64,000 nt of DNA from Alphaproteobacteria bacterium (GCA_028289425.1 JANQPL010000014.1:122170-186169); one strand, 5' to 3'. Counted from the stretch's first letter, positions 35,086-57,980 are shown. The notes: generated from the sequence alone by a model not told the origin. A program made the numbers and translations.

Positions 35086-35574
35086 TTAGCGCCTTCTCTT
35101 TCGCTTCTTACGGTCAGCCTTGTCTTTTTCAACGGGATAAACTTGATGCTCTGGGTCCCACCACAACAATCTTAAGATGTTTTCATGCTGCGGCCACCAA
35201 AACGCCCAAGCGCGATTTTTGCCAGTAAGTCGCAGTGAAATCAGCTCATCGAATTGGTCCATGCCCAATTTCTGCAACCTAACTTGAGCACTGCTATGTA
35301 GTTTATTGACCCCAATTCTGTGAGATCCTCCAGATTTTATTTGATCCCAGTTCTTACCTTCAAATTCGCGGAGCTTGTTGATTACTTCTAAGGCCTTGCC
35401 ACTCTCGGCAAGTTGGGACCAGCCAAAAGGACCTTCGCTGTCAGTGTTTTCAAACTTCCAGGCGAGCATCATATCGCTTTTTTTAGACGGAGCAGCGACT
35501 TTTGGGAGGCTCTTTGTATCGCGAATCCTAAATTCCGATTTTGGCCGGCGGGCTTTCCCCTTGCTTCTTTTCAC
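35086..35574 (-). CDS. Putative toxin partner of the Panacea antitoxin; 162 aa with K/R-rich termini and no recognisable domain.
   Basis: Its GTG start overlaps the antitoxin TAG stop by 1 nt (TAGTG on the minus strand). Both the N- and C-termini are basic. It lies in a low-GC islet. In-frame ATG codons also occur at 35472 and 35469. Confidence 0.5.
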   Translation of the reverse strand: MKRSKGKARRPKSEFRIRDTKSLPKVAAPSKKSDMMLAWKFENTDSEGPFGWSQLAESGKALEVINKLREFEGKNWDQIKSGGSHRIGVNKLHSSAQVRLQKLGMDQFDELISLRLTGKNRAWAFWWPQHENILRLLWWDPEHQVYPVEKDKADRKKRKRRR

Positions 35575-36005
35575 TAGAGCAAGCCGCTATAGTACTCGGC
35601 CATTGCGGAGTGAGAAATTTCTCTGTTTGAACGCGCGTCTTCCGGCAAACCCTCTCGCGCTTCCTTCCAGGGCCGTTCTCGATGAGTTAGCGCACTGAGC
35701 TGCGCTGCGCTCTTCTTCCCGTAGTATTCTACAACGACCTCAATCGTCTCTTTTTCTTCGTCTGATAGGTTACGAATGTCCCCGCTTGGAGGAGTGGAGA
35801 TATTGAACCGCCCTTTGTGCCAATCATATAGCTCGCGTACAACCGGCCCATTCGCCCACGCAAGAACCCTCTCTTTGAAAATCGGTTTCTCATCCCAAAC
35901 CAAAGACCAGGCTTGTGAGTAGTAGACGAGCTTTTGAAGCTTCATTGCACTCATCTTGCCGTGAAGCTTCACGATGTATCGAGCTACATCGAATACGTTG
36001 GACAT
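35574..36005 (-). CDS. Panacea-domain (DUF4065) SocA-like antitoxin.
   Basis: The N-terminal pattern MSNVFDVARYIVKLHG..MSAMKLQKLVYYSQAWSLVW...AWANGPVV matches the DUF4065 / SocA consensus. The start is set at the ATG at 36005. The ORF track begins at 36047. Confidence 0.75.
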   Translation of the reverse strand: MSNVFDVARYIVKLHGKMSAMKLQKLVYYSQAWSLVWDEKPIFKERVLAWANGPVVRELYDWHKGRFNISTPPSGDIRNLSDEEKETIEVVVEYYGKKSAAQLSALTHRERPWKEAREGLPEDARSNREISHSAMAEYYSGLL

Positions 36006-36038
36006 GGCGCGAATTCCTCGTACGAACCAACATAGCAA

Positions 36039-36056
36039 TTGATTCATTCAAATCAA
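36039..36056. promoter_or_regulatory. Palindromic candidate operator TTGATTCATTCAAATCAA, just upstream of the antitoxin start.
   Basis: TTGATT / AATCAA inverted repeat 34 bp upstream of the antitoxin ATG on the minus strand, within an AT-rich promoter region. Confidence 0.4.
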
Positions 36057-38684: not shown

Positions 38685-38926
38685 GTTAGACCGGAAGTTG
38701 GGCGCCGTCGACCATTTGTTGGCCTTGTAATTGCCGGTTCAACCCTAGCTCAATGGCTTGGTTTTCCCATTCAACCCAGCAATCCGGACACATTCTTACA
38801 AAGTTGTTGCAAAAAGACGGTGAATGTTTTTTATCACGGCAACCAGTCCAGACAGAAAGATCGTGCGTATAAGGTCTTTTGGCGCAGCGCCCCCCGGCGA
38901 TGCCCAAGGCGACGGGAGAGGTAACC

Positions 38927-40042
38927 ATGGCAGACCATAAAACAGATGTGATCATCATCGGCGCGGGCCCCGTGGGGTTGTTCGCTGTGGCCCAGTTGGG
39001 CATGCAGGCCCGCCTCAGTTGCCATTTGATCGACAGTTTGGACCGCCCGGGCGGACAGCCGGCGGAGCTTTATCCGGACAAACCGATCTACGACATCCCC
39101 GCCATCCCCGTCATCACCGGGCAGGGCCTCACCAACGCGCTGATGGCGCAGGCTCAGCCCTTTTCGCCCGTCCTGCATCTTGGTCAGTGTGCTGATAAAC
39201 TCGAGAAGCTCGACGACGGCAATTGGCGGGTGAGCACCGATTATGGCGAAAACATAGAGGCGCCGACGATTTTGATTTCATCCGGCCGCGGATTGTTCGA
39301 TCCCCGAAAGCCGAAGATCGACGGTCTGGCGGAGTATGAGAACAAATCGATATTCTATGCCCTGCGCGCCGGCGTCCGCGAAAAACTGCAAGGCCAACAT
39401 TTGGTCATCGCCGGCGGTGGCGACTCCGCGCTGGATTGGTGCATGGCGCTCGAGAAAGAAGCCGCCTCGCTCACCCTCATTCATCGGCGCAGCGGCTTCA
39501 GAGCCGCCGACGACAGCGTGCAAAAAGTCAAGCAGCTCGTCGCGGGAGGTAAGGTCAACTTCATCGTCGCGGAACCGGCCGGTGTCGTCGGCGAGAACGG
39601 CGTTCTTACGGGCGTGCAGATCAAAACGAAAGAAGGCGATGAGTTCACCCTGCGCGCGGACAGGTTCTTGCCGTTCTTCGGCATGACCCCGAAACTTGGC
39701 GCCCTGGAAAACTGGGGCCTTGAAATGGAGCGCGGGAAGATCGTCGTGACCGACACGCGCTATGCGTCCACATCAATCCCCGGCATTTTTGCGATCGGCG
39801 ATGCATCTTCTTACGACGGCAAGCAGGAATTGATCCTGACCGGCTTCCAAGAAGCAGCCCACGCGACCGCAGGCATCTATCAGCACATCTACGAAAAACC
39901 GCTACGGGTCCAGTTCACCACATCGTCTTCGGAAATCTTAGGCGCGTTGGGTGTGGAAAAGCACGTGGACTCCATGGGCGAGATCACCACACAGACGCCG
40001 ATGGAGTCATTGGTCGAGCGCGGCGTTGTGGTCAACGCGTGA
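38927..40042 (+). CDS. FAD/NAD(P)-dependent ferredoxin-NADP+ reductase (thioredoxin-reductase-like); probable electron donor for the Rieske oxygenase.
   Basis: FAD motif DVIIIGAGPVGLFAV and NAD(P) motif LVIAGGGDSALDW. The start is placed at the ATG at 38927. The ORF track begins at 38879. Confidence 0.7.
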   Translation: MADHKTDVIIIGAGPVGLFAVAQLGMQARLSCHLIDSLDRPGGQPAELYPDKPIYDIPAIPVITGQGLTNALMAQAQPFSPVLHLGQCADKLEKLDDGNWRVSTDYGENIEAPTILISSGRGLFDPRKPKIDGLAEYENKSIFYALRAGVREKLQGQHLVIAGGGDSALDWCMALEKEAASLTLIHRRSGFRAADDSVQKVKQLVAGGKVNFIVAEPAGVVGENGVLTGVQIKTKEGDEFTLRADRFLPFFGMTPKLGALENWGLEMERGKIVVTDTRYASTSIPGIFAIGDASSYDGKQELILTGFQEAAHATAGIYQHIYEKPLRVQFTTSSSEILGALGVEKHVDSMGEITTQTPMESLVERGVVVNA

Positions 40043-40137
40043 TCAATCAACGCCAATTCAGCCGCCAACAGGAAAGGTAAGTCCCCGAATTGATCGACGC
40101 TGACGCTTCGGGTCAGCGAGGGAAAAAAACTCAAAGA

Positions 40138-41631
40138 CTAATTCGGGGAAACTGGCAACGCCAAAATGCGTTCGCCCGGATAGACGTTGTCGATCATCTC
40201 ACCATTGGTGGCAACGATGGTACCGCCAACAATGACGTACGCCATGCCCGTCGGCGCCACATACGGTTTGCCATAGGTGGCATTGGCCTGCACCGTGTCC
40301 GGATCGAAGATGACGATATCCGCATCGGCCCCTTCCTGAAGCCGCCCTTTGCGTTTGAACGCAGGCGCGACACCTTCCAACCACTGGGCCTGGTAGAGGC
40401 TGGACTTGGCCAACGCTTCTCGCAAATCCATGACGCCCCGTTCGCGGGCATAGTGCCCCAACAAGCGGGTAAATGTGCCCGACAAATTGGGATTGGCCAT
40501 GACGTTCAAGCTCAATGCGGGTGTCACGTCAGACGACGCCATCATGCGCGGCCAATTGAGCGCCGTTTCCATCCACTCCTCTTTCACATAATGGTGGTTC
40601 ACCATGCCGGAGGGTTCTTCCAATCGGTATTTTATCCAGGTCTCTTCTGTCAGCCATTCACCAGTGGCCGTCCACTGAACATCTTCGTAGGTGATGTTGA
40701 AGATCTTCTGCCAATCCCGGTTGAACACGGCTGCCGAAATGCTGGTGCCCCCCGCCGCATAGGTGAGTGTTTCGGTCGTGATGTTGGCGCCGCGGGCATT
40801 GGCCGCATCGATTTTCGCCAACCACTCGCCCACCGCCTGCATGGCATTGTGGGTGATGTGATTGATCAGCACAGGTGCGCCAGTCTGTTCCGCCAGCGCA
40901 ATCACTTCGTCAAGACCTTGCGGTTCGCCGGGAAAGCCTCGGCGCACGTGAATGGCGATGGGTGCTTGGCGTTCCCCAGCCACCTCAAAGATCATGCGCA
41001 GTTCTTCCGGCGATACCGCGATGCTCATGTAATCCAGCAACACGCCAATGCCCAACCCGCCTTGGTCGAGCCCCTCATGAAGCAGGCCGCGCATTTCGTC
41101 GACCTGGTCGGGCGTTGCCCGCTGGATAAAGGCAGCGCCCGGCACAAGCGGTCCGGATTGGTTGAACAAATAGGGCTGGTCCCGGCCTTCGATCACTTTG
41201 GTGCGCACCGCCAGATGACTTACCGAGCTGCCGAAATTCAAAGGCGCGCCGCCTCCGAACTCGTGCCCATACGCCATGACGGGAAAGGCACCCGCTTCCA
41301 GATCAAGCTGCGTGGTCACACCGTCCAGAACTTGAAACTTTGCCCCCAGCCTCGACGGCGAGTGAGAATGCACATCGATAAAGCCGGGCGCCACCACATG
41401 GCCTGATGCATCAATAGTTTGGTCACCCGCCAATTCATGCTCGGAAACCGCCACGACCGTCCCGCCACGCAATCCCACGTGACGCACTGCATCCAATCCG
41501 GTCTCCGGATCGATGACCCGCCCGTTCGCGATGATCAGATCATACTCTTCCACGGCCGGCCCGCAGGCAGCAATTGCAACCGCCAAAAACAAAAAAGCTG
41601 CCCGGAACGCTGTCATTGCGGCGCCAGTCAT
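40138..41631 (-). CDS. N-acyl-D-amino-acid deacylase (D-aminoacylase) family amidohydrolase, secreted.
   Basis: A signal peptide, DLIIANGRVID, and GFIDVHSHS metal-binding motifs. 497 aa. Confidence 0.75.
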   Translation of the reverse strand: MTGAAMTAFRAAFLFLAVAIAACGPAVEEYDLIIANGRVIDPETGLDAVRHVGLRGGTVVAVSEHELAGDQTIDASGHVVAPGFIDVHSHSPSRLGAKFQVLDGVTTQLDLEAGAFPVMAYGHEFGGGAPLNFGSSVSHLAVRTKVIEGRDQPYLFNQSGPLVPGAAFIQRATPDQVDEMRGLLHEGLDQGGLGIGVLLDYMSIAVSPEELRMIFEVAGERQAPIAIHVRRGFPGEPQGLDEVIALAEQTGAPVLINHITHNAMQAVGEWLAKIDAANARGANITTETLTYAAGGTSISAAVFNRDWQKIFNITYEDVQWTATGEWLTEETWIKYRLEEPSGMVNHHYVKEEWMETALNWPRMMASSDVTPALSLNVMANPNLSGTFTRLLGHYARERGVMDLREALAKSSLYQAQWLEGVAPAFKRKGRLQEGADADIVIFDPDTVQANATYGKPYVAPTGMAYVIVGGTIVATNGEMIDNVYPGERILALPVSPN

Positions 41632-42353
41632 ACCGATTCCTTTCTTGCGAGGTATACGGTTTGAGTGAACGGTCTGTTGTCTTGAAGCGGATTTGTGAAA
41701 GTGACGGGTTCCGCGCGCGCCCAGCCGAAGACGGCCGCCAATCGGTCCGTAAAGTCATTGTCAGGCGGCACGTTCGACCACAACCCCATGACGCCCTTGG
41801 GATGGAGATGCGCTGCAAGGCCCGCCATTCCGTACTCGGAGTAAAACCCGTCACTGCGTTCATCGAGCAGCATATCCGGCGCATGATCAATGTCGATCAG
41901 GATAGCGTGAAACAAGCGACCCGGCACGCTAGCATCGAAACCGTCGGCAGAAGCGGCAAGGGCGAAGAAATCGCCCTGCACGATCCGGCACCGGCCATCA
42001 TCTTTCAACGGCGGCGCAAGCGGCACCAATCCTTGGTCATGCCAATCGATCACCGCCTCCAGGTATTCAATAACCAACAGCGACCCAACCGAATCGTTTC
42101 GCAGCACCTCCTGAGCGGTGTAACCAAGCCCCAATCCGCCGACCACCACGTCCAACCCGTTGCCATCCGCTTCCGCCAACCCAAGTCGGGCAAGCGCAAT
42201 TTCCGACTCTGTGAATAGGCTGGACATAAGATGTTCATCGCCGAGCATGATCTCAAACACATCCGTGTCCAGCGACAAGACACGGCGCCGTCGCAGGCTG
42301 ATCGGCCCGATAGGGGTCGGCCGGTAGTCGAGTTCTTCGAAAAGGTTGCTCAT
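41628..42353 (-). CDS. Spermidine-synthase-like (PABS fold) methyltransferase-fold protein.
   Basis: Gly-rich VVGGLGLGYTAQE motif. 241 aa. Its stop overlaps the aminoacylase start by 4 bp. Confidence 0.45.
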   Translation of the reverse strand: MSNLFEELDYRPTPIGPISLRRRRVLSLDTDVFEIMLGDEHLMSSLFTESEIALARLGLAEADGNGLDVVVGGLGLGYTAQEVLRNDSVGSLLVIEYLEAVIDWHDQGLVPLAPPLKDDGRCRIVQGDFFALAASADGFDASVPGRLFHAILIDIDHAPDMLLDERSDGFYSEYGMAGLAAHLHPKGVMGLWSNVPPDNDFTDRLAAVFGWARAEPVTFTNPLQDNRPFTQTVYLARKESV

Positions 42354-42377
42354 GGCGCTTCCCCCTTGCCGCAGCCG

Positions 42378-42923
42378 CTAAGGCACCAAATCGCAGCGGC
42401 CGGAGGCCAACGCAGAAACCACCTTGGCCAGAGATTGGGCGAGTGCATCGCCATCCGTCGAAATCCGGTGATCGGTGTAGTCATTCGACTCGGTGAAGGC
42501 TTTGTGCATATGCCGAACGCCTTCTATGGGAAACTTATCAGCATCCGGACGTTCCGATGCCCGTTTGACAGTCTCGCCAAGACTCGCATGAAGAATCACG
42601 TAGCGACAGGGAACCGTCCCCGACAGAGATTCCAAAAATGTCTTTGCGAACCACGGACCAATGACCCCGTCGACGATGGCGGTGTAGCCCCCGATGGCAA
42701 ACCCCTCGGCAGCCATCGCCGCGGCGCGAATTACTGTTTCGTTTTGGTGGTGACTTTCGGGACGTGTCGGGTCAACATAATGGCAGATGGACGCATGAAA
42801 GGAATCCACGTCAAGCAGCACACCGTGGGAGTCTTCCTCCGCCAAGCGGCGTGCAATCGCCGTCTTTCCGGTGCCAGGGCACCCGGTGACAACGTCAATT
42901 CTTCCCTTTTTCAGTGTGCTCAT
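42378..42923 (-). CDS. P-loop NTPase / small-molecule kinase-like protein.
   Basis: Walker A motif GCPGTGKTAIA. 181 aa. Confidence 0.5.
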   Translation of the reverse strand: MSTLKKGRIDVVTGCPGTGKTAIARRLAEEDSHGVLLDVDSFHASICHYVDPTRPESHHQNETVIRAAAMAAEGFAIGGYTAIVDGVIGPWFAKTFLESLSGTVPCRYVILHASLGETVKRASERPDADKFPIEGVRHMHKAFTESNDYTDHRISTDGDALAQSLAKVVSALASGRCDLVP

Positions 42924-42941
42924 CGGCTGAGCTTAGAGCGG

Positions 42942-44945
42942 TTAGGCCTCCGCCCGCAAATCGAGCCAGCCAATCTCCTGTTCAGTCAAGGGAACGGTCA
43001 AAGCCTCAAAAGACGATTTGGTCTCAGCGATGGTGCGCGGACCGATCAGCGCAAACGGTTCGAAGGGCTGGGCCAACACGTAAGCCAACGCAATATGAAC
43101 GGGTGCGACGCCTTTTTGTCCCGCCAACTCATAGCACCGCTTGCGGCGTTCAAAATTTGCGTCCGAATACCAGGCATTGACCAATTCCATGTCGTCCTTC
43201 TTGTCGGGGCCGGCACGATCAGTAAAAAATCCGCGCGCTTGGGACGACCAGCACATCAGCGCAATTTCATTTTTGGTCAACCAATCGCGATAGGCGTCTT
43301 CCGATGCCGCGATGCATCCCGGCCAGACAGGATTTTCCATGCGGGCCAGACTGAAATTGTTGGAAACGGCTTCAAATCCCAACAACCCCTTCGAGTCGGC
43401 ATAGGCGTTTGCCTCGTCGATACGCTCTGCCGTCCAATTGGATCCGCCATAGGCCTTGATGCGCCCCGCGGCCACGTGCTCATTGATCGCATCGACGAAT
43501 TCGCCCACCGGTACATCCAGATTGTCCCGATGAAGGAAGTAGACGTCCACATAATCCGTTTGCAGACGGTCGAGCGACTCAATAAGTTCAGGTGTAACGG
43601 TTTGCGGAAAGCAATTGGGGCTGTGCGCGCCCTTCCCAATCACCACCAACTCATCCCGAATACCTCGATTGGTCATCCACTGACCCAAAAGCTTCTCCAT
43701 AATGCCCTCGCCGTAGAGGTGGGCCGTGTCGAAGCAGTTGCCGCCGCGCTCAACGAAATCGTCAAACATGACGGCCGCATGGGGCATGGTCACTTGATTG
43801 TCGCAGCCCATCACCAGGCGAGAGATTTGCTTGTTCACCTTGCCGAAACTGCGATATGGCATCGGATCGACCGGTACCACCTTCAACGGGCCGCCATGGA
43901 CCGTACGGGTAACCGCTTTGGGGCGCTCTGCATCATAGGTCAGTCGAATCTGGCTGCGCCAAGCATCCAGCGTGGCCATATTGCCCAGCGTGTCGTTCCA
44001 GGACATTTCGTCCGTCTGCTGCCTGCCCGAAGCGATTGCATCGGCGATAACCTCCGCTTCAACAGCGTAAATGTTTCGCGTCTCATCGACCTTCATGCTT
44101 TCCGGTTTTTTGCCGTGGTGCGTCAACACCACCTCACCGAATGTCTTGCCATGCTGGGCCGGATGCCACGGCGCCGGCAGATGCAATTGTCCCTTATCGC
44201 CAAACACCGTGACCGTATTGTCGAGCCAAACCGACACGGCAGTAGAGACCTGGGCGACGATGCCGTTTTCAAACTGCATCGTGGCCGCCGTCCACTGGTC
44301 GACACCGGTTTCACCCAACTCGCCGACCGCTTTGACCCGAACGGGATCGAGGAACGGAACGCCTTGAACCGCGCCCGCTACAAGGCGGCTCATGGAAACG
44401 GGATAGCACCCCACATCCAATATACCTCCGCCCCCGAGCGCATTGCTGAAGAGCCGGCTGTTGGCATCGAAAGGCGCCTCAAATCCGAAACTTGCTCGGA
44501 TCATCCGCACGTCGCCGATAGCCCCGTCGCGAATCAAGTCAATCGCCTTTTTGGTTTGCGGATGGCAGCGATACATAAACGCTTCCATAGCGAAGACGCC
44601 GTTTTCCTCTGCCGCGTTGAAGATCGCCATGGCTTCCGCGTGGTTCATGCCGATGGGTTTTTCGCACAGCACGTGTTTGCCTGCGCGGGCGGTCTTGATG
44701 GCCCATTCCGCATGGCCGGGATGAGGGTTGGCGATGTAGACAGCTTCGACCGCCGGGTCGTTCAAAAGCGACTCGTACGAGCCGTGCGGCGTTGTGCCGT
44801 CGCCGTGGGCGGCGAATTTATCGGCACTTTCCTGCGAACGGCTGCCGACGGCCGCCAGCGTGCCCTTGTCGGTCGTCTGCAGCGCTTTTGCAAACTGCTT
44901 TGCAATGCTGCCGGTTCCCAAAATACCCCACTTGATGCTTCCCAC
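42942..44945 (-). CDS. Fusion protein: N-terminal Gfo/Idh/MocA oxidoreductase and C-terminal aldo/keto reductase.
   Basis: N-terminus KWGILGTGSIAKQFA...VYIANPHPGHAEW...CEKP is Gfo/Idh/MocA-like. The C-terminal half has an AKR-like TIM barrel (GCDNQV...FDTAHLYGEG). 667 aa in a single ORF. Confidence 0.7.
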   Translation of the reverse strand: MGSIKWGILGTGSIAKQFAKALQTTDKGTLAAVGSRSQESADKFAAHGDGTTPHGSYESLLNDPAVEAVYIANPHPGHAEWAIKTARAGKHVLCEKPIGMNHAEAMAIFNAAEENGVFAMEAFMYRCHPQTKKAIDLIRDGAIGDVRMIRASFGFEAPFDANSRLFSNALGGGGILDVGCYPVSMSRLVAGAVQGVPFLDPVRVKAVGELGETGVDQWTAATMQFENGIVAQVSTAVSVWLDNTVTVFGDKGQLHLPAPWHPAQHGKTFGEVVLTHHGKKPESMKVDETRNIYAVEAEVIADAIASGRQQTDEMSWNDTLGNMATLDAWRSQIRLTYDAERPKAVTRTVHGGPLKVVPVDPMPYRSFGKVNKQISRLVMGCDNQVTMPHAAVMFDDFVERGGNCFDTAHLYGEGIMEKLLGQWMTNRGIRDELVVIGKGAHSPNCFPQTVTPELIESLDRLQTDYVDVYFLHRDNLDVPVGEFVDAINEHVAAGRIKAYGGSNWTAERIDEANAYADSKGLLGFEAVSNNFSLARMENPVWPGCIAASEDAYRDWLTKNEIALMCWSSQARGFFTDRAGPDKKDDMELVNAWYSDANFERRKRCYELAGQKGVAPVHIALAYVLAQPFEPFALIGPRTIAETKSSFEALTVPLTEQEIGWLDLRAEA

Positions 44946-45065
44946 TTGTTCGCCTTTCTCAATGCCGCCAAACCCGCATGGTTAAGCGGATCTTTACGTA
45001 AACCCTCTTTAGTAGCTTGTCACCAAAACACAACGCCAAAAGTAAGGACCGAAGGGGTTTTTCTT

Positions 45066-46106
45066 ATGTCTCAGTTGCAGGGGTTTTTGTGGTCCATGGG
45101 GCGATGCGCCACCAAGGCGGTGGCGGACACGATCAGCGCACACACACCCGCCCATGCCACGAGCTGGGTCGACACCACTCAGATGATGAAAAGCCCGGCC
45201 TATTACATCAAGCACGCGCCGGTACCATTGGTGATGACACTGCACCATCCGCAGTATTGCGATACCTTCGGCAAGCTTACCCAGCAGTTCGCCGATGCTC
45301 CGGTGGTGCACACGGTGCGCGATCCGATTTCGAACCTCAAGAGTTTCGCGAAAACATTCCTGACATCCTTCGTCGCCCGGCGCGTTGATGAAGCGGGTCA
45401 ACTTTCGGCCCAGGGCAAGTCGGTAGCCGACGCCATCAACCCGGCGGCACTTGAAGAATGGTTGCTGCCGACGGCAGATCTTTGGCGCCAATACAATGCT
45501 TACAAGAATTCGCCTCACTTGATTGTCGATTTTGCGGATTTGGGCGAAGACCACTTCGTTGGGACCATGGAAGAGATCATCGGATTTCTGGGTCTGACAA
45601 TTGAAACCCCTATCACGTGGACCACGGAAGCCAACACGGAATGCGACCGCTTCTTCGTAGGCTATCAGCGCAGCTTCACCCTCATGGACAAGAAACTCGA
45701 TCTGCAGTTCAGCCGCTGGCCGAACCATTGGGGCGAGTTTGGAATGACCACATTGGGGGAATTGAGGTCGGAGGCCCTGCGTGAGGTGTGCGGCGATGAT
45801 CCCATCTACATTCACATTGCCAGCGACCAGCTTTGCACATTCGGCCGGCTGGATTACGAGTGCGCGACATTCGCGGCCTATATGGCCGAGGATGCAGTGC
45901 GCGAGGCCATCGCCCATCAGGTCGCAACCGACTACGCCAATACCGCCGAAATTGTCGCCAAGGACCTTACCGGGCTTCAGAGCCGATTGATCGCAAAATT
46001 CGAGAAAACGAGCCGCAATGGCGTGAAACGTTTCCTCAAACTCAAGCCAGAGCTTGAAGCGCGTTGGGCAGGCTGGCAAGAGCTGATGGAACGGAAAGCG
46101 GCGTAA
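45066..46106 (+). CDS. Hypothetical protein; weak sulfotransferase-like features.
   Basis: 346 aa. An RDP-containing segment (VVHTVRDPISNLKS) resembles the 3'-phosphate-binding motif of PAPS sulfotransferases. An APS kinase gene lies 4 kb away. It is the only real part of a 1291-aa ORF in the track. Confidence 0.35.
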   Translation: MSQLQGFLWSMGRCATKAVADTISAHTPAHATSWVDTTQMMKSPAYYIKHAPVPLVMTLHHPQYCDTFGKLTQQFADAPVVHTVRDPISNLKSFAKTFLTSFVARRVDEAGQLSAQGKSVADAINPAALEEWLLPTADLWRQYNAYKNSPHLIVDFADLGEDHFVGTMEEIIGFLGLTIETPITWTTEANTECDRFFVGYQRSFTLMDKKLDLQFSRWPNHWGEFGMTTLGELRSEALREVCGDDPIYIHIASDQLCTFGRLDYECATFAAYMAEDAVREAIAHQVATDYANTAEIVAKDLTGLQSRLIAKFEKTSRNGVKRFLKLKPELEARWAGWQELMERKAA

Positions 46107-46734
46107 AGAGCGCGCGCATCATGTCTATGTCTTGCTCGCGGAAGGGGGCAAGACGTTCCGGATGCCACATAATTCCGCGGATCGGATAGCCCTCGACTGT
46201 AATTGCCTTGACGATGCCATCCGATGATCGTCCGTCTACAGATATTCTATCATTCGAGTCCGCGGTCCCGAAATTGTGGTAACTGTTGACGGCAATCGCC
46301 TTGCCGCAAAAATCGACCGTTTGTTTTTTCTGAACATGTCCATCGACGTGCTTAAGCGGAACACCGAAATGGTGTTGAATGATTTGCATGCCTCGGCATA
46401 CGCCTAAGAGCGGCACATGATGTTGGATCGCATGCTCCAACAAGTTGGTTTCAACGGCATCGCGTTCTGGTGCGTCGCCACCGTATGCCACAAGATCATT
46501 GCCGCCCGTGAGTAAGATGCCCGTTGGTTTCAAGTTGCGTATGAACACGTCGACCAGTTGAGGATTGTTCGGCATGGCAATGCCCACATATCCCGCCTGA
46601 GACAAAAACGCTGCCCATTGCTGGTCCAGCGCATCGCGGCGCTCGCCGGTCTTCATATCCGTTACAACGCGTTGGGTAATTAGTACGATTGGCGCCCTGG
46701 TCACGCAATCACATCCACTTTGCGATTGGCGCAA
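46042..46734 (-). CDS. Class I glutamine amidotransferase-like, gamma-glutamyl-GABA hydrolase (PuuD) family.
   Basis: GATase1 nucleophile motif GVCRGMQ and the HH pair. The start is uncertain. Confidence 0.65.
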   Translation of the reverse strand: MRQSQSGCDCVTRAPIVLITQRVVTDMKTGERRDALDQQWAAFLSQAGYVGIAMPNNPQLVDVFIRNLKPTGILLTGGNDLVAYGGDAPERDAVETNLLEHAIQHHVPLLGVCRGMQIIQHHFGVPLKHVDGHVQKKQTVDFCGKAIAVNSYHNFGTADSNDRISVDGRSSDGIVKAITVEGYPIRGIMWHPERLAPFREQDIDMMRALFTPLSVPSALASLPNALQALA

Positions 46735-49085
46735 TCAATGCGCAGCGTCTTAGCGCCCGACCATCTTTCGAAGTTGCTCTCGCCGGCGCCGATCACCGCC
46801 GGAATTTGAAGCTCGCCCGCGCGAATTGCCATGTGAGAATTCACACCGCCATAGGCCGTGATCAGCCCGCCGATCTTGTGGGAAAACAACCAATCAAAAC
46901 CGGGATCCGCATTGGGCAGCATGACAATCGCCCCGTCCAATCCGGCAAAATTGTCCGGCGCGACGGTATTTGCTTGGATCGACCGTTGGGTGATGAAGTT
47001 CGGCTCATCCGCCCCCATTTCCATCTGCCAAACATCGTCGGCACCAGTGATCAGACTTGGCAAGATCAATGCCTTGGTTTTTTCATATTGCGCGCGGCCT
47101 GATTCAATGGCGCGTCCCAACACATCTTTCGGATCATTGACGGTGCCATAAAGCTCATGCACGGCCTGGATGTTGGCAAACGCCAAATCCTCACGCGTAA
47201 ATCCGTGGCGCGCCCCGACCTCGGCAAAAATCTCCATCGCGTCCGATAGATTGCGCGTGAAATGAAACTTCGCCTTTTCGCGGCCTTCAATGCCGGCTTT
47301 CAGGAAATTGAATAATCCAACCACATTGTGGCTGAGATTATGCTCTTTCAGCAAAGCACTGATCTCATTCATCTGTTGAAGCGTCAGCGCAAAGGCCGGA
47401 TGAGAAGCCCTGGCGCCATCTGCCTGTTCGTCCCACCTAAAGTAAGTGTCGGGTGCTGCGTCGTAGCGTGGCGAACAAATGTCGTATGTGCCCGGACGAA
47501 GGTGGCCATATCGATGGAGAAAAGCGCTTTTGGTGAGATTTTGGAAATCCGCAGCGATTTCTCCACTCACTGTCGTAAGGCTGCTCAAGAAGGCTTGGTA
47601 GTCTTCCTCACTCAATGCCCCCGCCGTGACCAAGGATCTAAGCAACTGCATGGCAATAAAGCCGGCGCGGGCAAGCCCCGCAAACGGCAAGGTGCCGTAC
47701 CGCTTGCAATCTTCCAGCAGCCAATAGACCTGGGAGATGGCGTCGTCCTGCTTGGCGCAAATTGTTTCATAACGCCGTTGCAACGTCTCGATCTTGGCAA
47801 GGTCCTTTCGCCACAATCCATCGTCGGCGATGATCCGATTGGTGAGGTGCCTCAGGCTTTCTTCGAGAACCAGACGATCGTTTTCGGAAAATCCGTACGC
47901 TGTTAATTCGCGTAGTCGTTCCGGCAGGTCGAGCGTGTAGCAGGAAAACAGGATCTCGAACTCAACCTTGTCATGAAGCGATGGCCGCTCACAGAGCGCA
48001 TCGATGTAGTAATTGGCCAAACGCTCGGCGAGGTCATCCGGCACGTCATTGGGAATGAAAGAATTGAAACTTACCCGAACGTCAATGAACGGCATGCCGT
48101 AGAAGTCGCACAGAAGCGGAAAGCTGCGCAGGTTCCGATACCCGTAATTGTGCCGCTGATAGGCCCAGATCGAATCCGTCACCAATTCCCGATAGAGCGA
48201 TAAAGCGAGAGGTTTCGGCCGCAATCCAATGATTTCCGCCGGGTTCCAATCGGGCATGACACCGAAGACTGTGCGCCGACCAAAAAGGTAAGGATGCGGT
48301 TTTGCGCGTTCCGCTACGCGACGCGCTACAGCACCAAGCATTATGTTGTGCTGCTGAATATCGACACCGCGCGCGCCGTTCTCGACCAGTGGACGTGCCT
48401 GCAACAAAAACAATGCGCCCTTCCGATCGATGGCAAACTCTATATCCAACCGGTCGTTGCCGGTCAGCCGTTCCACTTCCTTAAGGAGCGCCGCCACCTT
48501 TTCGCCAATCGGATCGTCGACCTGCTCGGCCGAGCGGCTGATGATCAGTGTGCGATGATCGTTCGACGTACCGGAGGTAATGAACTCGGTATCGCCTTCC
48601 TCGCTGAAATTCAGAACTATGTATGGCGCGCCCGTGTTCGGATCGTAGGAAAACGCAACCCCGCTTGCCACCACGTCGCGCAGCATTGGTTGGATGAGAA
48701 CCTGGTGATCGGTGTGATCATCGCCATACGATGCGTATACCTGCTCGACGGCAAGCTCAAGCGCCCGTGGGCCCTCCACATTGAGCACACTTAGATATTC
48801 ACCTGCGTGTGATGCGTCTGCGCCGTCTTCCCCGAGGGCGCTGCTGCGCACAATCATTGGGGCTGCCGCCCATTCATTCCTGAAAATGCGGTTCACCATC
48901 TGGCGCCGGTTGTCGCGCCAGGCGCCGAGCGTCACGACTTCAGCCGGCAGAATCGTCGCGGAACGGATCTGCGCCGAAAGCCCGTGCAGTGTGTCGGCTT
49001 TACTTCCAAAGCGAAAAGCCTCGGGGCGCTGTCGTTCAAGGTCGAGCGCGTACCGATTCGAAGCCGACGACATTGCATTTTTCAT
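46701..49085 (-). CDS. PEP-utilising enzyme with rifampin-phosphotransferase-like architecture: N-terminal PPDK_N ATP-grasp domain, a central domain, and a C-terminal His swivel domain, with no PEP/pyruvate TIM barrel.
   Basis: N-terminal PEP-synthase ATP-grasp signature (FGSKADTL...SSALGEDG). C-terminal mobile-domain catalytic His in GGVNSHMAIRAGELQIPAV. 794 aa. Confidence 0.7.
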   Translation of the reverse strand: MKNAMSSASNRYALDLERQRPEAFRFGSKADTLHGLSAQIRSATILPAEVVTLGAWRDNRRQMVNRIFRNEWAAAPMIVRSSALGEDGADASHAGEYLSVLNVEGPRALELAVEQVYASYGDDHTDHQVLIQPMLRDVVASGVAFSYDPNTGAPYIVLNFSEEGDTEFITSGTSNDHRTLIISRSAEQVDDPIGEKVAALLKEVERLTGNDRLDIEFAIDRKGALFLLQARPLVENGARGVDIQQHNIMLGAVARRVAERAKPHPYLFGRRTVFGVMPDWNPAEIIGLRPKPLALSLYRELVTDSIWAYQRHNYGYRNLRSFPLLCDFYGMPFIDVRVSFNSFIPNDVPDDLAERLANYYIDALCERPSLHDKVEFEILFSCYTLDLPERLRELTAYGFSENDRLVLEESLRHLTNRIIADDGLWRKDLAKIETLQRRYETICAKQDDAISQVYWLLEDCKRYGTLPFAGLARAGFIAMQLLRSLVTAGALSEEDYQAFLSSLTTVSGEIAADFQNLTKSAFLHRYGHLRPGTYDICSPRYDAAPDTYFRWDEQADGARASHPAFALTLQQMNEISALLKEHNLSHNVVGLFNFLKAGIEGREKAKFHFTRNLSDAMEIFAEVGARHGFTREDLAFANIQAVHELYGTVNDPKDVLGRAIESGRAQYEKTKALILPSLITGADDVWQMEMGADEPNFITQRSIQANTVAPDNFAGLDGAIVMLPNADPGFDWLFSHKIGGLITAYGGVNSHMAIRAGELQIPAVIGAGESNFERWSGAKTLRIDCANRKVDVIA

Positions 49086-49098
49086 TGTCGTAAAGCCG

Positions 49099-49854
49099 TC
49101 ACGCGGCGCGTTTTGCCGCCCAAACGCGGGTTGTATAAGGCACCTGTATGCTCGGAGCTTTCAATGCCCGCAGTTGGTTTTCGATTTTGTCAATGATGGC
49201 GCCAAAGCCATCGCCTGCCTGCCGATGCAGCGTTGCATGCGAACGCCACGCTTCCACAACATCGTCGACCTGCTGCTCGTGCAAGATCGTGCCTTCGATC
49301 TTCTCTACGGGGCCGAACAAACCACTCTTGTTGATTTCGTCAGTCTGGTCTTCACGACGCGTGCCGTATCCATATTCGGGGATTGCATCAGAAATGATGC
49401 CTTCGATTTCCGCCTGGATCGGATCGGAAAGATCCCGATGGTTCCACATGGCCGCAAACCAACCACCTGGCTTTAGAATGCGGGCCGTTTCCGTGAGAGA
49501 TGCTTGACGATCTGTGACGTTAAAGGACGAACCGAAGGTGACAATATCGAACATGCTGTCGTCCTGACCGGTATCTTCCGCCGTGTTTTCGATGTACGCG
49601 ACCACGTTCGGCAACTGCTTTGTCCGCTGTTGGCCCAGCGCTCTCATATTGTCGTTTGGCTCGATAGCCGTCACTTCAAGACCACGGTCAGCCAACATTA
49701 ATGTGAGATGCGCTACGCCCGCGCCGATATCACAAGCACGCGCCCCTTGTTTGGCACCGCACGTGACCAGCAATTCGTCAATCGCGCTGTCAGAGTAATC
49801 TGGGCGCTTCAAATAAGCCTGCGCTAAATCCGAATAATCCCAAGCGGTTTTCAT
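49099..49854 (-). CDS. Class I SAM-dependent methyltransferase.
   Basis: Motif I DIGAGVAHLT. The start is set at the ATG at 49854 (MKTAWDYS). The ORF track begins at 49965. Confidence 0.7.
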   Translation of the reverse strand: MKTAWDYSDLAQAYLKRPDYSDSAIDELLVTCGAKQGARACDIGAGVAHLTLMLADRGLEVTAIEPNDNMRALGQQRTKQLPNVVAYIENTAEDTGQDDSMFDIVTFGSSFNVTDRQASLTETARILKPGGWFAAMWNHRDLSDPIQAEIEGIISDAIPEYGYGTRREDQTDEINKSGLFGPVEKIEGTILHEQQVDDVVEAWRSHATLHRQAGDGFGAIIDKIENQLRALKAPSIQVPYTTRVWAAKRAA

Positions 49855-49980
49855 TGTTAACCCCGTGCTCAAAAAGTTTTGGTAACCAAGAACTAGGCGA
49901 AAGCTCTTGAAAATTCGTTTCGATTTTTCGGGAATTCGGAAAGAAAAAATTAACAAACAGATCATGTTGGTGTACGGATC

Positions 49981-50595
49981 ATGGTTAAACGCGCGTTAAT
50001 AGAACAATTCGCCGATGCAGAGCGGATAAGGGACGACTCCCCTCTTCAGAGGTCGGACCAGGGATGTGTTGTTTGGATTACGGGGCTTTCCGGTGCCGGT
50101 AAATCAACGGTCGGGAACATCTTGAAATCACGGCTATTGGCCAAAGGGCGGCGCACAATATTCCTTGACGGCGATGCGCTTCGGGGCGTCTTCGCCATTG
50201 GTGACCGTTTCGATCCCAATGCGCGGCTTGAACTTGCCCGGAGCTATGGGCGCTTGTGCCAATTACTGGCATCTCAAGGGCATACGGTAATTTGTGCCAC
50301 CATCTCCATGCGCAACGTGGTCTATGACTGGAACCGCAAGAACCTGCCGAATTATGTAGAGGTGTTCTTGGACGTGCCGCTGGAAGTACGCCAGGCCCGT
50401 GATCCGAAAGGATATTACGCGGCGGTCCACAACGGCACACTGAACAATTTCGCGGGTCAAGACCAGCGGGTCGATGTACCGCCGTCACCCGACATTCATA
50501 TCGCACCGGAGTCGGCCGCCACGCCCGAAGAGATCTGCGATCAGATCGAAGCGAAGCTGGATAAAAATTTATCCGTAAAGGGACAAGTCGCCTGA
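49981..50595 (+). CDS. cysC: Adenylyl-sulfate (APS) kinase.
   Basis: P-loop ITGLSGAGKST and LDGDALR motifs. 204 aa. It faces the methyltransferase gene across a divergent AT-rich promoter region. Confidence 0.8.
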   Translation: MVKRALIEQFADAERIRDDSPLQRSDQGCVVWITGLSGAGKSTVGNILKSRLLAKGRRTIFLDGDALRGVFAIGDRFDPNARLELARSYGRLCQLLASQGHTVICATISMRNVVYDWNRKNLPNYVEVFLDVPLEVRQARDPKGYYAAVHNGTLNNFAGQDQRVDVPPSPDIHIAPESAATPEEICDQIEAKLDKNLSVKGQVA

Positions 50596-51321
50596 GGCCA
50601 CGCGCCGTTCGTAGTAGGCGAGATCTTCTTCGTTATCGCACTCGCCCCAGCTTCCCTGGACGGGCGACGTCCCGATTTTCACGCCTTCCATAATCAGCCG
50701 CTGCAGAAGGCTCGTCATGTCAAGTTTGTCCCGCACGGCACCGATCAAAGGTTCAATCACGCTTTTGGTTTTCGACCAGCCTTCGGGCGTGAATTTCAAC
50801 AGGCCCATATATTGCCCTTTGATGTCCGCCATCGAATTTGTCTTGCCGCCAATCTCGGTGAGATGACCGTTGTCATCCGTCTGGAATGTTTCTGCATCGC
50901 TCAGTGGATCATCGAATCGGTCTTTCCACAGCGCCGCCCAATGCGGATCGTAGCTGATGGCGATATCGTCCGTACACCGCGATAACCTGATGACCGTCAA
51001 CGGGTCATAGAAGATGTCGCTGTAGCTTACGATGGTCGGTCCCTGCGCTAGCCATTCATCGGCGGCGGACAGGCTTGCCACCATGTTGGTTTCGGACCAA
51101 CGCGGATTGTGGAAACGCGTTTCGCCGAATTCCTCCAGCATATCCGCCTTATAGCCCGTGCACAGCGCAATGTGGCTGACGCCGGCTTCTTCCAGCGATG
51201 CGAGTTGGCGTTCGATCAAAGATCGGCCCGCCAGCTTAATCAGCCCTTTGGGCCGCGCTGCCGTGCTGTTTCCCATGCGGCTGCCACGACCTGCCGCAAG
51301 AATGAGCCCTCTCGCCCCCAT
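50569..51321 (-). CDS. Sugar-phosphate / phospho-base nucleotidyltransferase (LicC / GlmU-N-like).
   Basis: LAAGRGSRMG nucleotide-binding loop. The start is set at the ATG at 51321. The ORF track begins at 51537. Confidence 0.6.
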   Translation of the reverse strand: MGARGLILAAGRGSRMGNSTAARPKGLIKLAGRSLIERQLASLEEAGVSHIALCTGYKADMLEEFGETRFHNPRWSETNMVASLSAADEWLAQGPTIVSYSDIFYDPLTVIRLSRCTDDIAISYDPHWAALWKDRFDDPLSDAETFQTDDNGHLTEIGGKTNSMADIKGQYMGLLKFTPEGWSKTKSVIEPLIGAVRDKLDMTSLLQRLIMEGVKIGTSPVQGSWGECDNEEDLAYYERRVASGDLSLYG

Positions 51322-51481
51322 TTCCCTCAACTCCAGCTGTGAAACCTCGCCAGCAGTATGTGGAAACGAGGGTAAATCGCTGCTTAACCGGGCCAAATAG
51401 TGCAGAAACCCTAACCTATTCGCCCCTCCGCTTGGCTTTCTGCTATAGTTGCCTGCGCTAAAGACCGCCAGGGAGACACAG

Positions 51482-52078
51482 ATGACGTCAGCGACAACGG
51501 ATAAACGGGCAAGTTTCACGGCTATGCAGGACGGCACGCCGGAGGACTACAAGATCATTAGCGAAAGCTCACGACCTTTTAGTCAGGACCTCCCAAATCG
51601 CGTCCTTTCGCATCTTAAGTTGTTGGGCGATGACCACGGTGGCTTCGCAATCGATCGTCTTACCCACTCGCTGCAATCAGCCACGCTTGCGCACCGGGCA
51701 GGAAAAGATGAGGAATATGTGGTCTGCGCATTGCTTCACGACATCGGGGATTCGCTGGCGTGTTATAACCACGCAGAATTGGCGGCCACCATGCTTTATC
51801 CCTTCGTGTCGGAAGCGAACCATTGGATGGTCGAAAAGCACGGCATTTTTCAAGGGTACTATTTCTTCCATCATTTGGGCCTTGATCGGGACATGCGGGA
51901 GGAATATCGCGGGCACCCTCATTTCGAACACTGCGCCCAATTCTGTCACCAATTCGATCAGAACGCCTTCGATCCGGACTACGACACCATGCCGCTCGAG
52001 GCTTTCGAACCGATGGTCCAGCGCGTGATGGCCAAGCCAAAACGCAGTATCTATATGCGGGAAAGCAAAGCGGCATAA
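51482..52078 (+). CDS. HD-domain protein (PhnZ-like HD phosphohydrolase/oxygenase superfamily).
   Basis: H...HD...H...H...D pattern (LAHRAG, LLHDIGD, HWMVEKHG, FHHLGLD). 198 aa. Confidence 0.55.
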   Translation: MTSATTDKRASFTAMQDGTPEDYKIISESSRPFSQDLPNRVLSHLKLLGDDHGGFAIDRLTHSLQSATLAHRAGKDEEYVVCALLHDIGDSLACYNHAELAATMLYPFVSEANHWMVEKHGIFQGYYFFHHLGLDRDMREEYRGHPHFEHCAQFCHQFDQNAFDPDYDTMPLEAFEPMVQRVMAKPKRSIYMRESKAA

Positions 52079-55614: not shown

Positions 55615-57963
55615 TTGGCCGTTGACCGATTTCCTTCCTTTTGCAATGCAACGCCCAGCGCACAACCATTCTGGGGGCTTGTCTTGATTATTCCCGTTCG
55701 GCGTATTGTCCGTCTTCTGTTTTCTGTCAGTTTTCTCATTGTAGTGACCAACCTTGCGGGGTGTGCCGCCTTGAACGCCAAACAAGTCACGCTGGAACAA
55801 CGCCTCGATATGTTCCCGAAGGGGCCGTATCCCGTGAAAGAAGCGGTCACCATTCGCTGGAACGATCATCAAGTTCCTTTTGTGGAAGCAAGTAATGACA
55901 ATGACCTGGCCTTTGCGCTCGGTCTTGTGCATTTCCATTTGCGCGGCGGACAGATGACCTTGCTGCATCGCATTGCCCATGGCCGCTTATCGGAATCCGC
56001 AGGGCCGTTCACGGCCGAAATCGATCACGCCATTCGAATCATTGATTTTGGGTATGCCTCGGAATCGGTTGTGGAACAAATGCCGGACGACACCAAGGCG
56101 TGGCTTGAGAATTATGTCCGTGGTCTGAATTACTACCAAGACAATATGAAAAAGCGGCCGCCAGAGTTCGGCTTACTCAATCTGCGTAAAGAAGAATGGC
56201 GCGTGGAAGACGTCATCACCATCGGCCGCATCGCCAGCACGGACGTCAACTGGCTGACCCTGTTGGGGCTCATGGGCGAGCGGGTGAAGCCGGAATGGGA
56301 ACAGACATTTGCAAATGTGTTGGAAGCAGGCGCCGACCCGGTCACAAGCTTTCGGGGCACCCCCAAGCAAGCGCTGTTGTCGGACTTCCTCGCCGGCATG
56401 AGCCGGTCCGGCAGCAATTCGTGGGCTGTGTCGCCTGAGCGCAGCGCCACCGGCAGTGCCCTCATTGCCAACGACCCCCATTTGGGACTTGTTCTGCCAA
56501 ATCTATGGATCTTGGCGGGGATGAAATCCCCCAGCTATCACGCCGTGGGCTTTATGATTCCGGGCGTGCCGATCGTTGGCGTGGGCCGAAACCCGGATAT
56601 GGCGTGGGGCGGCACGAATTTACGGGCGGCGGTGAGCGACCTTTATGATGTGTCCCGTGCGGACGATCCGCAAATCGTCGAAACGGAAAGCGTGATCAAG
56701 AACCGCCTGTGGTTTAACCGCACGGTCACCTTGCGCCGGTCGGCGTACGGTCCGATCTTGTCGGATTCCCAATTTTTGGCAAAGCGGCCAGGCGAGGAAA
56801 TTGCCATCAAATGGATCGGTCACGAGCCGCGTGATCAAGTGACGGCCCTGCTTGCCGCGGCGCGTGCCTCAACACCGGAAGAGTTTCGGGAGGCCTTCAA
56901 GTCCTTCGCCGTTTCCGCCCAGAACATGGTCTTTGCCGACAAAAACGGTAACATTGGACAGATCATTGCCACCACACTCCCGGTTCGCCAGTACGACACG
57001 TTGGAAGACATCGTTCTGGACCCGGACGATCCCACCTATGAGTGGCAGGGCTATGTGGACGCGACGGATTTGCCGTGGGCCCTGAATCCGCCGGAAGGCT
57101 TCATTGCGTCCGCCAATAATCGACCGGCTGAAACCCCCGTACCGCTTGGGTTCTTTTTCGGCGGCGATGATCGGGTGCGCCGTCTTCAAGAAGTGCTCGC
57201 CGCCAATGACAAAGTGAGCATGGCGGACCTGACTGCATTGCAGCTCGACACCAAGTCGCCGGATGCGGAAGCCATGAAAGAAGCGCTGGTTACGCAGATT
57301 GAGCCCCTCGCGGGATTGGAAGAAGCCTCTGGCTTTGTTTCCGATCTCAAAGGCTGGGACGGTGATTATCGCGCCGATTCAAGGGGCGCTCTGGCTTTTG
57401 AATTGCTGCTCTACCATCTTGTGCCGTCCGTTTACGGGTTTGAAGATGCATCGGACGTACCCCCGCTTCGCCTTCAGTGGCACTACAAAACAAAACTGTT
57501 CTTAAAAGACCTGGCCGCACTGGATGATGCAGCGCGCGAGTCGCTGCTGGTCGAAAGCACAATGAGCGCGGCAGAAGATGCCGAGAAATATGAGATTTGG
57601 GGCGATATCCATACCCTCAAAGTGGGGCACTTGTTGAGCAATGTGCCTGTCATTGGCGGCCGTTATGTGATCGAGGAATATGGTGTCGGCGGCTCGCGCG
57701 AAACGCCCATGAAGACCGCCCACGATCTGGTGAATGAAAAACACTCCGCAAGCTATGGCTCCCAGGCCCGCCACCTCTCAGATATGTCCGACATGGACGA
57801 GAACTATTTTCTGCTGTTCGGCGGTGAAGACGGTTGGATCGGCAGCGAAAACTTCGCCGACATGATGCCGTTGTGGCGCAAGGGGGACTATGTGCGTATG
57901 CCCTTGCGGCTTGAAACGGTTGCGAAAGAGTTCGGGCATGTCTTGACACTTTCACCTCAGTAA
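55615..57963 (+). CDS. Penicillin acylase family Ntn-hydrolase (AHL-acylase-like), probable lipoprotein.
   Basis: The lipobox LAGC follows a hydrophobic signal. The beta-subunit N-terminal nucleophile context is GSNSWAVSPERSATG. 782 aa. The exact start is uncertain. Confidence 0.75.
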   Translation: MAVDRFPSFCNATPSAQPFWGLVLIIPVRRIVRLLFSVSFLIVVTNLAGCAALNAKQVTLEQRLDMFPKGPYPVKEAVTIRWNDHQVPFVEASNDNDLAFALGLVHFHLRGGQMTLLHRIAHGRLSESAGPFTAEIDHAIRIIDFGYASESVVEQMPDDTKAWLENYVRGLNYYQDNMKKRPPEFGLLNLRKEEWRVEDVITIGRIASTDVNWLTLLGLMGERVKPEWEQTFANVLEAGADPVTSFRGTPKQALLSDFLAGMSRSGSNSWAVSPERSATGSALIANDPHLGLVLPNLWILAGMKSPSYHAVGFMIPGVPIVGVGRNPDMAWGGTNLRAAVSDLYDVSRADDPQIVETESVIKNRLWFNRTVTLRRSAYGPILSDSQFLAKRPGEEIAIKWIGHEPRDQVTALLAAARASTPEEFREAFKSFAVSAQNMVFADKNGNIGQIIATTLPVRQYDTLEDIVLDPDDPTYEWQGYVDATDLPWALNPPEGFIASANNRPAETPVPLGFFFGGDDRVRRLQEVLAANDKVSMADLTALQLDTKSPDAEAMKEALVTQIEPLAGLEEASGFVSDLKGWDGDYRADSRGALAFELLLYHLVPSVYGFEDASDVPPLRLQWHYKTKLFLKDLAALDDAARESLLVESTMSAAEDAEKYEIWGDIHTLKVGHLLSNVPVIGGRYVIEEYGVGGSRETPMKTAHDLVNEKHSASYGSQARHLSDMSDMDENYFLLFGGEDGWIGSENFADMMPLWRKGDYVRMPLRLETVAKEFGHVLTLSPQ

Positions 57964-57980
57964 CACCACTTGTTGGAGCG

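Follow-up and report, generated by a model that had tools for sequence, protein, structure and literature searches.

Mammalian dimeric dihydrodiol dehydrogenase (DHDH)/D-xylose 1-dehydrogenase (NADP+) (PDB 2o48) and related Gfo/Idh/MocA enzymes such as the sugar 3-ketoreductase KijD10 are single-domain proteins of ~330-350 amino acids (aa), and the bacterial aldo/keto reductases (AKRs) AKRtyl (8jwk), the DepB/DON 3-epimerase reductases (8hwn, 9wk1), AKR6D1 and IolS (1pyf) are free-standing barrels. In a 64,000-nucleotide stretch of the genome of an Alphaproteobacteria bacterium (GCA_028289425.1 JANQPL010000014.1:122170-186169; hereafter the window), both kinds of domain are joined in one 667-aa protein, referred to here as the GFO-AKR fusion. 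Its gene stands with three others on the minus strand, encoding a P-loop kinase-like protein, a 241-aa protein with the spermidine synthase fold (PABS-like) and an exported amidohydrolase. An earlier reading made from the sequence alone (the sequence-only reading) had suggested that the four genes form one transcriptional unit of unknown pathway. We consider it fairly probable that they are a string peculiar to one lineage, probably transcribed together but independent in function, and not a conserved pathway module.

All four minus-strand open reading frames (ORFs) drawn by the sequence-only reading were recovered with the same boundaries (Table 1), and the tight spacing it described was read directly from the sequence. 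The gap between the fusion and kinase genes was 18 bp, that between the kinase and PABS-like genes was 24 bp, and the stop of the PABS-like gene overlapped the start of the amidohydrolase gene by 4 bp (ATGA, 41628-41631). This spacing (18, 24 and -4 bp) makes co-transcription of the four genes plausible; the transcript would begin in the 123 bp that separate the fusion gene from its divergent neighbour. The sequence GAAAGG was found 7-8 nt upstream of the GTG start of the fusion gene, and Shine-Dalgarno-like purine runs were present ahead of the fusion, PABS-like and amidohydrolase genes; no such run occurred at a normal distance ahead of the kinase gene. Consensus promoters and terminators turned up less often in a scan of the sequence than in its shuffled counterpart, with none where two of the genes meet, and no consensus sigma-70 site was found in the divergent region.

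The fusion, PABS-like and amidohydrolase genes were found adjacent to one another only in three related alphaproteobacterial genomes (L002, L003 and L059), whose fusion proteins were 77-80% identical to that of the window. In L001/L002 (OZ245840; fusion 80% identical) and in L003 (77%), the kinase gene was absent, and the three remaining genes were separated by gaps of 9 or 24 bp and by the same 4-bp overlap as in the window. In L059, a Logan contig (fusion 78% identical), all four genes were present. Outside this narrow clade of uncultured Alphaproteobacteria the association was lost. Flanks of up to 10 kb per side contained no kinase or PABS-like gene at 45 distant fusion loci (47-57% identity), for which at least 1 kb of downstream sequence was available in 39 and at least 3 kb in 31. 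An amidohydrolase relative was seen at one of the 45 only (L040), where it was 32% identical and lay on the opposite strand ~7.5 kb from the fusion gene. The immediate neighbours of the distant fusion loci belonged to 60 different Pfam families, and no partner recurred beyond one Omnitrophota-type subgroup. Two intermediate fusion homologues (62-63% identity) were followed by a ribBA or a GNAT gene and had none of the partners nearby. The partners were also missing at all 19 metagenome amidohydrolase loci (46-71% identity), where the neighbours were rpoC, DUF4344, metallo-beta-lactamase, GH16 and rhodanese genes. In Hoeflea and Nisaea, homologues of the 241-aa protein with 70-74% identity stood alone, and because this identity is maintained across genera that do not have the arrangement, its role appears to be independent and housekeeping-like.

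These findings indicate that the four genes do not form a conserved module, as the partners were lost in every wider comparison. The co-conservation expected from the sequence-only reading thus failed outside a clade defined by at least 77% fusion identity, and even inside that clade the kinase gene was variable. Close relatives would share the string through common ancestry.

The Omnitrophota-type subgroup, consisting of Omnitrophota-type and unclassified metagenome-assembled genomes (L005, L009, L011, L014, L015, L016, L018 and L044), contained a conserved row of overlapping genes encoding a CN_hydrolase, a ~770-aa weakly GH127-like protein, a putative cyclase (PF04199), the fusion and a ~902-aa protein without a Pfam match. 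This was the sole recurrent fusion neighbourhood, and no pathway could be interpreted from it.

The first gene of the string was analyzed at the level of domains, residues and predicted structure. In the single 667-aa ORF, Pfam identified GFO_IDH_MocA (PF01408; 5.8e-23, 82 bits) and GFO_IDH_MocA_C3 (PF22725; 1.2e-21, 77 bits), both above cut-off, and Aldo_ket_red (PF00248; 6.3e-50, 170 bits, profile positions 14-286 of 291), confirming the two-family composition given in the sequence-only reading. The Gfo/Idh/MocA part extended over residues 4 to ~335 and the AKR part over residues ~362-665. The N-terminal nucleotide loop, G7-I-L-G-T-G-S-I-A15, has the GxGxxG/A pattern. In an alignment of 45 family members of 54-85% identity, the residues S35 and R36, E95-K96-P97, D177 and Y181 were invariant in the first half and the AKR tetrad D406, Y411, K438 and H472 was invariant in the second half, as were E340, G380, D382 and N383 in the linker. 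In Gfo/Idh/MocA proteins, a beta2 position that lacks an acidic residue is suggestive of NADP(H). The S35-R36 pair sits at the end of strand beta2, and this Ser-Arg would indicate that the fusion uses NADP(H).

The N-terminal 340 residues of the fusion share their fold with DHDH (2o48; sequence E 2.4e-39), and Foldseek gave target-normalized TM-scores (TMt) of 0.86-0.91 against 2o48-type structures, with 0.91 for 2o48 itself. Further relatives of this half were the TDP-sugar 3-ketoreductase KijD10 (3rc1), aldose-aldose oxidoreductase (5a02), 1,5-anhydro-D-fructose reductase (2glx), a Rhizobium etli oxidoreductase (4had) and At4g09670. The fusion and the DHDH-type enzymes have in common the lysine of EKP and the motif D-x-x-x-Y; C94-E-K-P97 and D177-V-G-C-Y181 of the fusion aligned with VLCEKP and LDLGIY of DHDH, and the Lys-Asp-Tyr set aligned with K97/D176/Y180 of DHDH and with K102/Y186 of KijD10. 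However, identity to the DHDH-type enzymes was only 25-29%, and the fusion adds an AKR barrel that they do not have. The C-terminal ~305 residues aligned over the whole barrel of the bacterial AKRs (E 1e-20 to 3e-18; identity ~26%) with the Asp-Tyr-Lys-His tetrad intact, its members falling on the DTA..YG, K and H positions of AKRtyl and DepB. The AlphaFold (AF2) model had a mean predicted local distance difference test score (pLDDT) of 93.6 and a predicted TM-score (pTM) of 0.92, and strands and helices alternated through residues 377-661 as in a complete (alpha/beta)8 barrel. As the pTM of 0.92 was obtained for a two-domain chain, the packing of the domains against each other is confidently fixed in the model. 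No chain in the PDB spanned both halves, the matches being to each half separately. Both sites look catalytically competent, and the residues retained in the two halves point to long-standing joint selection.

The sequence-only reading had described the fusion as unusual, and this did not hold. The best 120 matches listed from a search of 5.8 billion proteins were all 662-731 aa long, covered 99-100% of the query, and contained PF01408, PF22725 and PF00248; they came from Planctomycetota, Verrucomicrobiota, Lentisphaerae, Chloroflexota and others. Among 1.84 billion representatives clustered at 50% identity, exhaustive searching with HMMER gave ~45 full-length fusion representatives (640-730 aa, query residues ~4-662) with identities down to 32-39%. 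Below them in the list were stand-alone GFO proteins of ~340 aa (41-50% identity) and stand-alone AKRs of ~300-320 aa (45-56%). In a scan of one genome per species, 47 loci carried a full-length relative of the fusion; they belonged to Alphaproteobacteria, Actinomycetota, Chloroflexota, Planctomycetota, Verrucomicrobiota and Omnitrophota. In all, the fusion occurred in at least seven phyla at ~50-57% identity; among the cultured actinomycetes were Kribbella, Nonomuraea, Pseudonocardia, Arthrobacter and Actinopolymorpha. The GFO-AKR architecture is therefore common and phylogenetically widespread. A sequencing or assembly artefact that joined two neighbouring genes by a frameshift was excluded as the origin of the 667-aa ORF, the chance that it accounts for the fusion being negligible. 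Nothing was found in its favour: the same single ORF was present in independent assemblies from several phyla, in complete chromosomes and in cultured isolates, and its linker was conserved and modelled with high confidence. A literature search returned nothing relevant on a fusion of Gfo/Idh/MocA and aldo-keto reductase domains, although the slash-written family name was probably unmatched in part. The family is large, widespread and experimentally uncharacterized.

From this architecture we infer that the fusion would be a cytoplasmic bifunctional oxidoreductase of the sugar or polyol type, in which one site would oxidize a hydroxyl group and the other would reduce a carbonyl group. If both steps took place on the same or on successive intermediates, NADP(H) would be recycled within one polypeptide and the net outcome would be an epimerization or isomerization. 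It is doubtful, but conceivable, that the whole family acts in this manner as a self-contained, redox-neutral epimerase or isomerase for a common sugar or polyol, with the dehydrogenase half making a keto intermediate that the AKR half would then reduce with the NADPH just formed. If so, the GFO-AKR fusion would be the covalently linked counterpart of two-enzyme oxidation/reduction epimerizations. DepB relies on a separate oxidizing partner enzyme, whereas in the fusion the dehydrogenase is covalently attached, and any functional analogy between the two is an inference only.

Several points weigh against the picture of an unlinked gene string headed by a bifunctional enzyme. With respect to the fusion, no substrate, cofactor or conserved neighbourhood points to a redox-neutral mechanism, stand-alone versions of both halves exist at 41-56% identity, and neither the stand-alone AKR nor the stand-alone GFO was next to the other half (one case each). 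With respect to the string, the tight spacing was retained in four genomes (the window, L002, L003 and L059), and the PABS-like and amidohydrolase genes overlapped by ATGA in the window, L002 and L003 and by 1 bp in L059. Spacing and overlap of this type look like those of translationally coupled, functionally linked genes. Moreover, the sample consisted of 50 genome loci, two contigs with fusion homologues and one stand-alone homologue per half, and a minority lineage with conserved partners could have escaped it.

The points that concern the fusion would also fit an arrangement in which its halves are independent tethered enzymes, or in which one half is a non-catalytic nucleotide sensor like the Kv-beta AKRs, with no substrate hand-over or cofactor coupling between them. 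The stand-alone homologues, not adjoining each other in the two cases examined, and the absence of a conserved neighbourhood suggesting a defined pathway would both be expected. We nevertheless hold this arrangement to be unlikely. The domain order was fixed, the length stayed at ~665-675 aa and identity at 48-57% across phyla, the four linker residues were conserved, and the two-domain model was confidently packed. In addition, all catalytic residues of both halves were invariant, as would be expected if selection had long acted on the two active sites together.

The points that concern the string would fit a genuine operon with a joint function, restricted to this clade of Alphaproteobacteria. 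In such an operon the exported amidohydrolase would de-acylate a compound that, once released or imported, would be processed by the cytoplasmic fusion, the kinase and the PABS-fold transferase, and there might be a tie to the neighbouring sulfation and nucleotidyl-transfer genes. The order fusion, (kinase), PABS-like protein and amidohydrolase was kept in the window and the three related genomes with gaps of 9-24 bp and stop/start overlaps, and NTP_transf_3 and APS-kinase genes were found upstream in all four. The presence of the carbohydrate de-N-acetylase PpOngB among the structural relatives of the amidohydrolase would also fit a sugar-type oxidoreductase. However, with fusion proteins 77-80% identical, synteny among these four genomes is expected by descent, and relatedness this close leaves no way of telling selection from common ancestry. 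The association was broken in every wider comparison, the kinase was dispensable within the clade, and the PABS-like protein was far more conserved than its neighbours (70-74% in genera without the arrangement). A clade-specific operon is thus quite improbable, and a string of functionally independent genes remains the reading that we favour. The properties of the other three proteins are described below with this reading in mind.

The 241-aa protein was the most conserved of the four, with homologues 68-75% identical in Hoeflea, Oricola, Nisaea, Chelativorans, Aurantimonas and Robiginitomaculum. Its Pfam match to Spermine_synth (PF01564; 0.0044, 17.0 bits) was below the cut-off of 22.9, so that membership was not established by sequence, and no NCBIfam match was obtained. 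Its homologues (P0122-P0240) were mostly without a Pfam match and carried the NCBI label 'spermidine synthase'. The polyamine aminopropyltransferase fold proposed in the sequence-only reading was upheld by structure. The AlphaFold model (pLDDT 91.2) had four N-terminal strands, the top 50 Foldseek matches were all spermidine synthases (query-normalized TM-score, TMq, 0.62-0.74; E down to 6e-13), and a profile of the family compared with the PDB found aminopropyltransferases first (E 7e-5). Both SpeE (1inl, 2o06, 1uir) and the 241-aa protein consist of an N-terminal beta-domain and a Rossmann fold. In contrast to SpeE, the 241-aa protein is ~40-70 residues shorter and has D154-I-D-H-x-P159 in the catalytic region where SpeE has D-[ST]-[ST]-D-P. 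SpeE enzymes hold the aminopropyl amine of decarboxylated S-adenosylmethionine (SAM) through the Asp or Glu of their GGG[D/E]G loop. The corresponding stretch of the 241-aa protein is G72-G-L-G-L76-G-Y-T, in which L76 aligned with the glutamate of GGGEG in 7xif and 1uir and was invariant in 35 homologues. Because the acidic residue that selects decarboxylated SAM is lost, the 241-aa protein is probably not a canonical aminopropyltransferase.

The kinase assignment of the sequence-only reading was also supported. Pfam gave AAA_33 (4e-9), the Walker A motif was GCPGTGKT, and the protein aligned end to end with Atu3015 (PDB 1zp6; E 6.5e-17), a structural-genomics P-loop protein of Agrobacterium tumefaciens in which Walker A is present as well. 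The protein is in addition chloramphenicol-phosphotransferase-like (PF07931). Its homologues were sparse (39 clusters), and many had weak matches of the same chloramphenicol-phosphotransferase-like type. We know of no member of the Atu3015-type family with a known substrate. The kinase gene was considered as an insertion peculiar to this window, and this was rejected, as L059 also carries it (63% identical). With its absence from L001/L002 and L003, the kinase gene is a small accessory gene that was gained or lost within the clade.

For the amidohydrolase, Pfam matched Amidohydro_3 (4.6e-16) as well as Amidohydro_1, and NCBIfam matched PRK09061 with 425 bits against a cut-off of 340. Full-length homology was found to N-acyl-D-glutamate deacylase Bb3285 (3gip; E 2.3e-33, residues 28-473) and to the D-aminoacylase of Alcaligenes faecalis (1m7j; E 6e-26). 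The HxH motif (H88, H90), H228, H259 and D368 aligned with metal and catalytic residues, and the protein is predicted to be a metallo-amidohydrolase of the N-acyl-D-amino-acid/carbohydrate de-N-acetylase clade. Because PpOngB (9kb1; E 2e-24) was almost as close, the substrate class is left between the D-amino-acid and carbohydrate types. The sequence-only reading had named a signal-peptide-bearing N-acyl-D-amino-acid deacylase; export and homology to this clade stood, but two features set the protein apart from the D-aminoacylases. The Cys of their GNCG motif is replaced by Ala113, which follows Glu112 (LEAG), and the signal peptide is of the lipoprotein type. With a lipobox, A-I-A-A-C23, at the end of its signal peptide, the amidohydrolase is probably an exported, lipid-anchored lipoprotein. 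Lipoboxes were also present in the three clade orthologues, more distant homologues had signal peptidase I-type signal peptides or lipoboxes, and one or the other was kept in all orthologues examined. The amidohydrolase is accordingly predicted to act outside the cytoplasm, in a compartment other than that of the cofactor-dependent cytoplasmic products of the first three genes, and this mismatch counts in favour of functional independence.

Upstream of the string, the sequence-only reading had pointed to an adjoining tailoring cluster. The tie to this cluster is weak, as the block has a divergent orientation and both L003 and L059 lack it. In the window, the cluster at 46042-51537 comprised genes for a GATase, a 794-aa PPDK_N/PEP-utilizer, a methyltransferase, an APS kinase and a MobA-like NTP transferase, with the sulfotransferase also counted, and it resembles a sulfation/activation cassette. 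The part running from methyltransferase through PPDK and GATase to sulfotransferase was found upstream in the window and in L002, and this ~5-kb sub-block is an indel between the window/L002 and L003/L059. In L003 and L059 the APS-kinase and NTP_transf_3 genes directly abutted the fusion gene, and in L042 a partial fusion gene had an NTP_transf_3 gene as its direct upstream neighbour. The 3' ends of the convergent sulfotransferase (plus strand, ending at 46106) and Peptidase_C26/GATase (minus strand, ending at 46042) genes overlapped by ~65 bp (46042-46106); the counterpart in L002 was an overlap of ~59 bp (tblastn coordinates 8843-8901).

The boundaries of the string are given in Table 1. The upstream sulfotransferase gene had an 88% identical counterpart in L002 with its orientation kept. 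A 356-aa minus-strand ORF lying over it had zero Pfam matches and was rejected as the upstream gene in favour of the plus-strand sulfotransferase frame. As the upstream gene is on the plus strand, the unit begins with the fusion gene.

Table 1. Positions of the four genes and of the features that bound them, in window coordinates.
Feature	Position	Strand	Remarks
Pyr_redox_2 flavoprotein gene	38879-40042	+	Convergent, downstream boundary; Pfam; 95 bp from amidohydrolase stop
Amidohydrolase gene	40138-41631	-	497 aa; predicted exported
Spermidine-synthase-fold (PABS-like) gene	41628-42353	-	241 aa
P-loop kinase-like gene	42378-42923	-	181 aa; variable member of the string
GFO-AKR fusion gene	42942-44945	-	667 aa, GTG start; first gene of the unit
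Divergent intergenic region	44946-45068		123 bp; presumed promoter region of the unit
Sulfotransferase gene	45069-46106	+	Divergent, upstream boundary; Pfam Sulfotransfer_3 (PF13469), 34.7 bits, 2.9e-8

Two long plus-strand ORFs were noted opposite the string. A stop-free ORF of 1291 aa (42231-46106) ran antisense over the fusion and kinase genes, its codons precisely in register with those on the minus strand, and merged in frame into the sulfotransferase gene. The numbers of TTA, CTA and TCA codons were 0/0/0 in the fusion gene and 0/0/0 in the kinase gene, and because the minus-strand genes are without these codons, the 1291-aa ORF is a codon-usage shadow and not a gene. A 438-aa ORF antisense to the amidohydrolase gene (40090-41406) was likewise a shadow ORF resulting from codon usage.

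Other features of the window were recorded as follows. A few kb from the four genes, a SocA/Panacea antitoxin gene (PF13274, 4.7e-21; 35574-36047, minus strand) abutted a 162-aa ORF without a Pfam match (35086-35574, minus strand), and the two could be a toxin-antitoxin pair. At 55615-59537 on the plus strand, a penicillin amidase gene (PF01804, 3e-151) was followed by a gene of the GH3 family (auxin-amido-synthetase-like) and preceded by two acyl-CoA dehydrogenase genes and an enoyl-CoA hydratase gene; this region may be a catabolic set for acyl-amides or compounds of the homoserine-lactone type. Rfam and tRNA scans of the whole 64-kb window found nothing, and a PADLOC scan for defence systems gave a marginal P-loop match only.

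As an operon, the four-gene string is ordinary, and its remaining value lies in the GFO-AKR family and in the questionable 'spermidine synthase' label. That annotation, widespread in the Alphaproteobacteria, may be wrong for the family of the 241-aa protein. The GFO-AKR family is labelled in databases just as 'aldo/keto reductase' or 'oxidoreductase', and with a substrate assigned to it, thousands of genes of heterotrophs from soil and water would gain an annotation.

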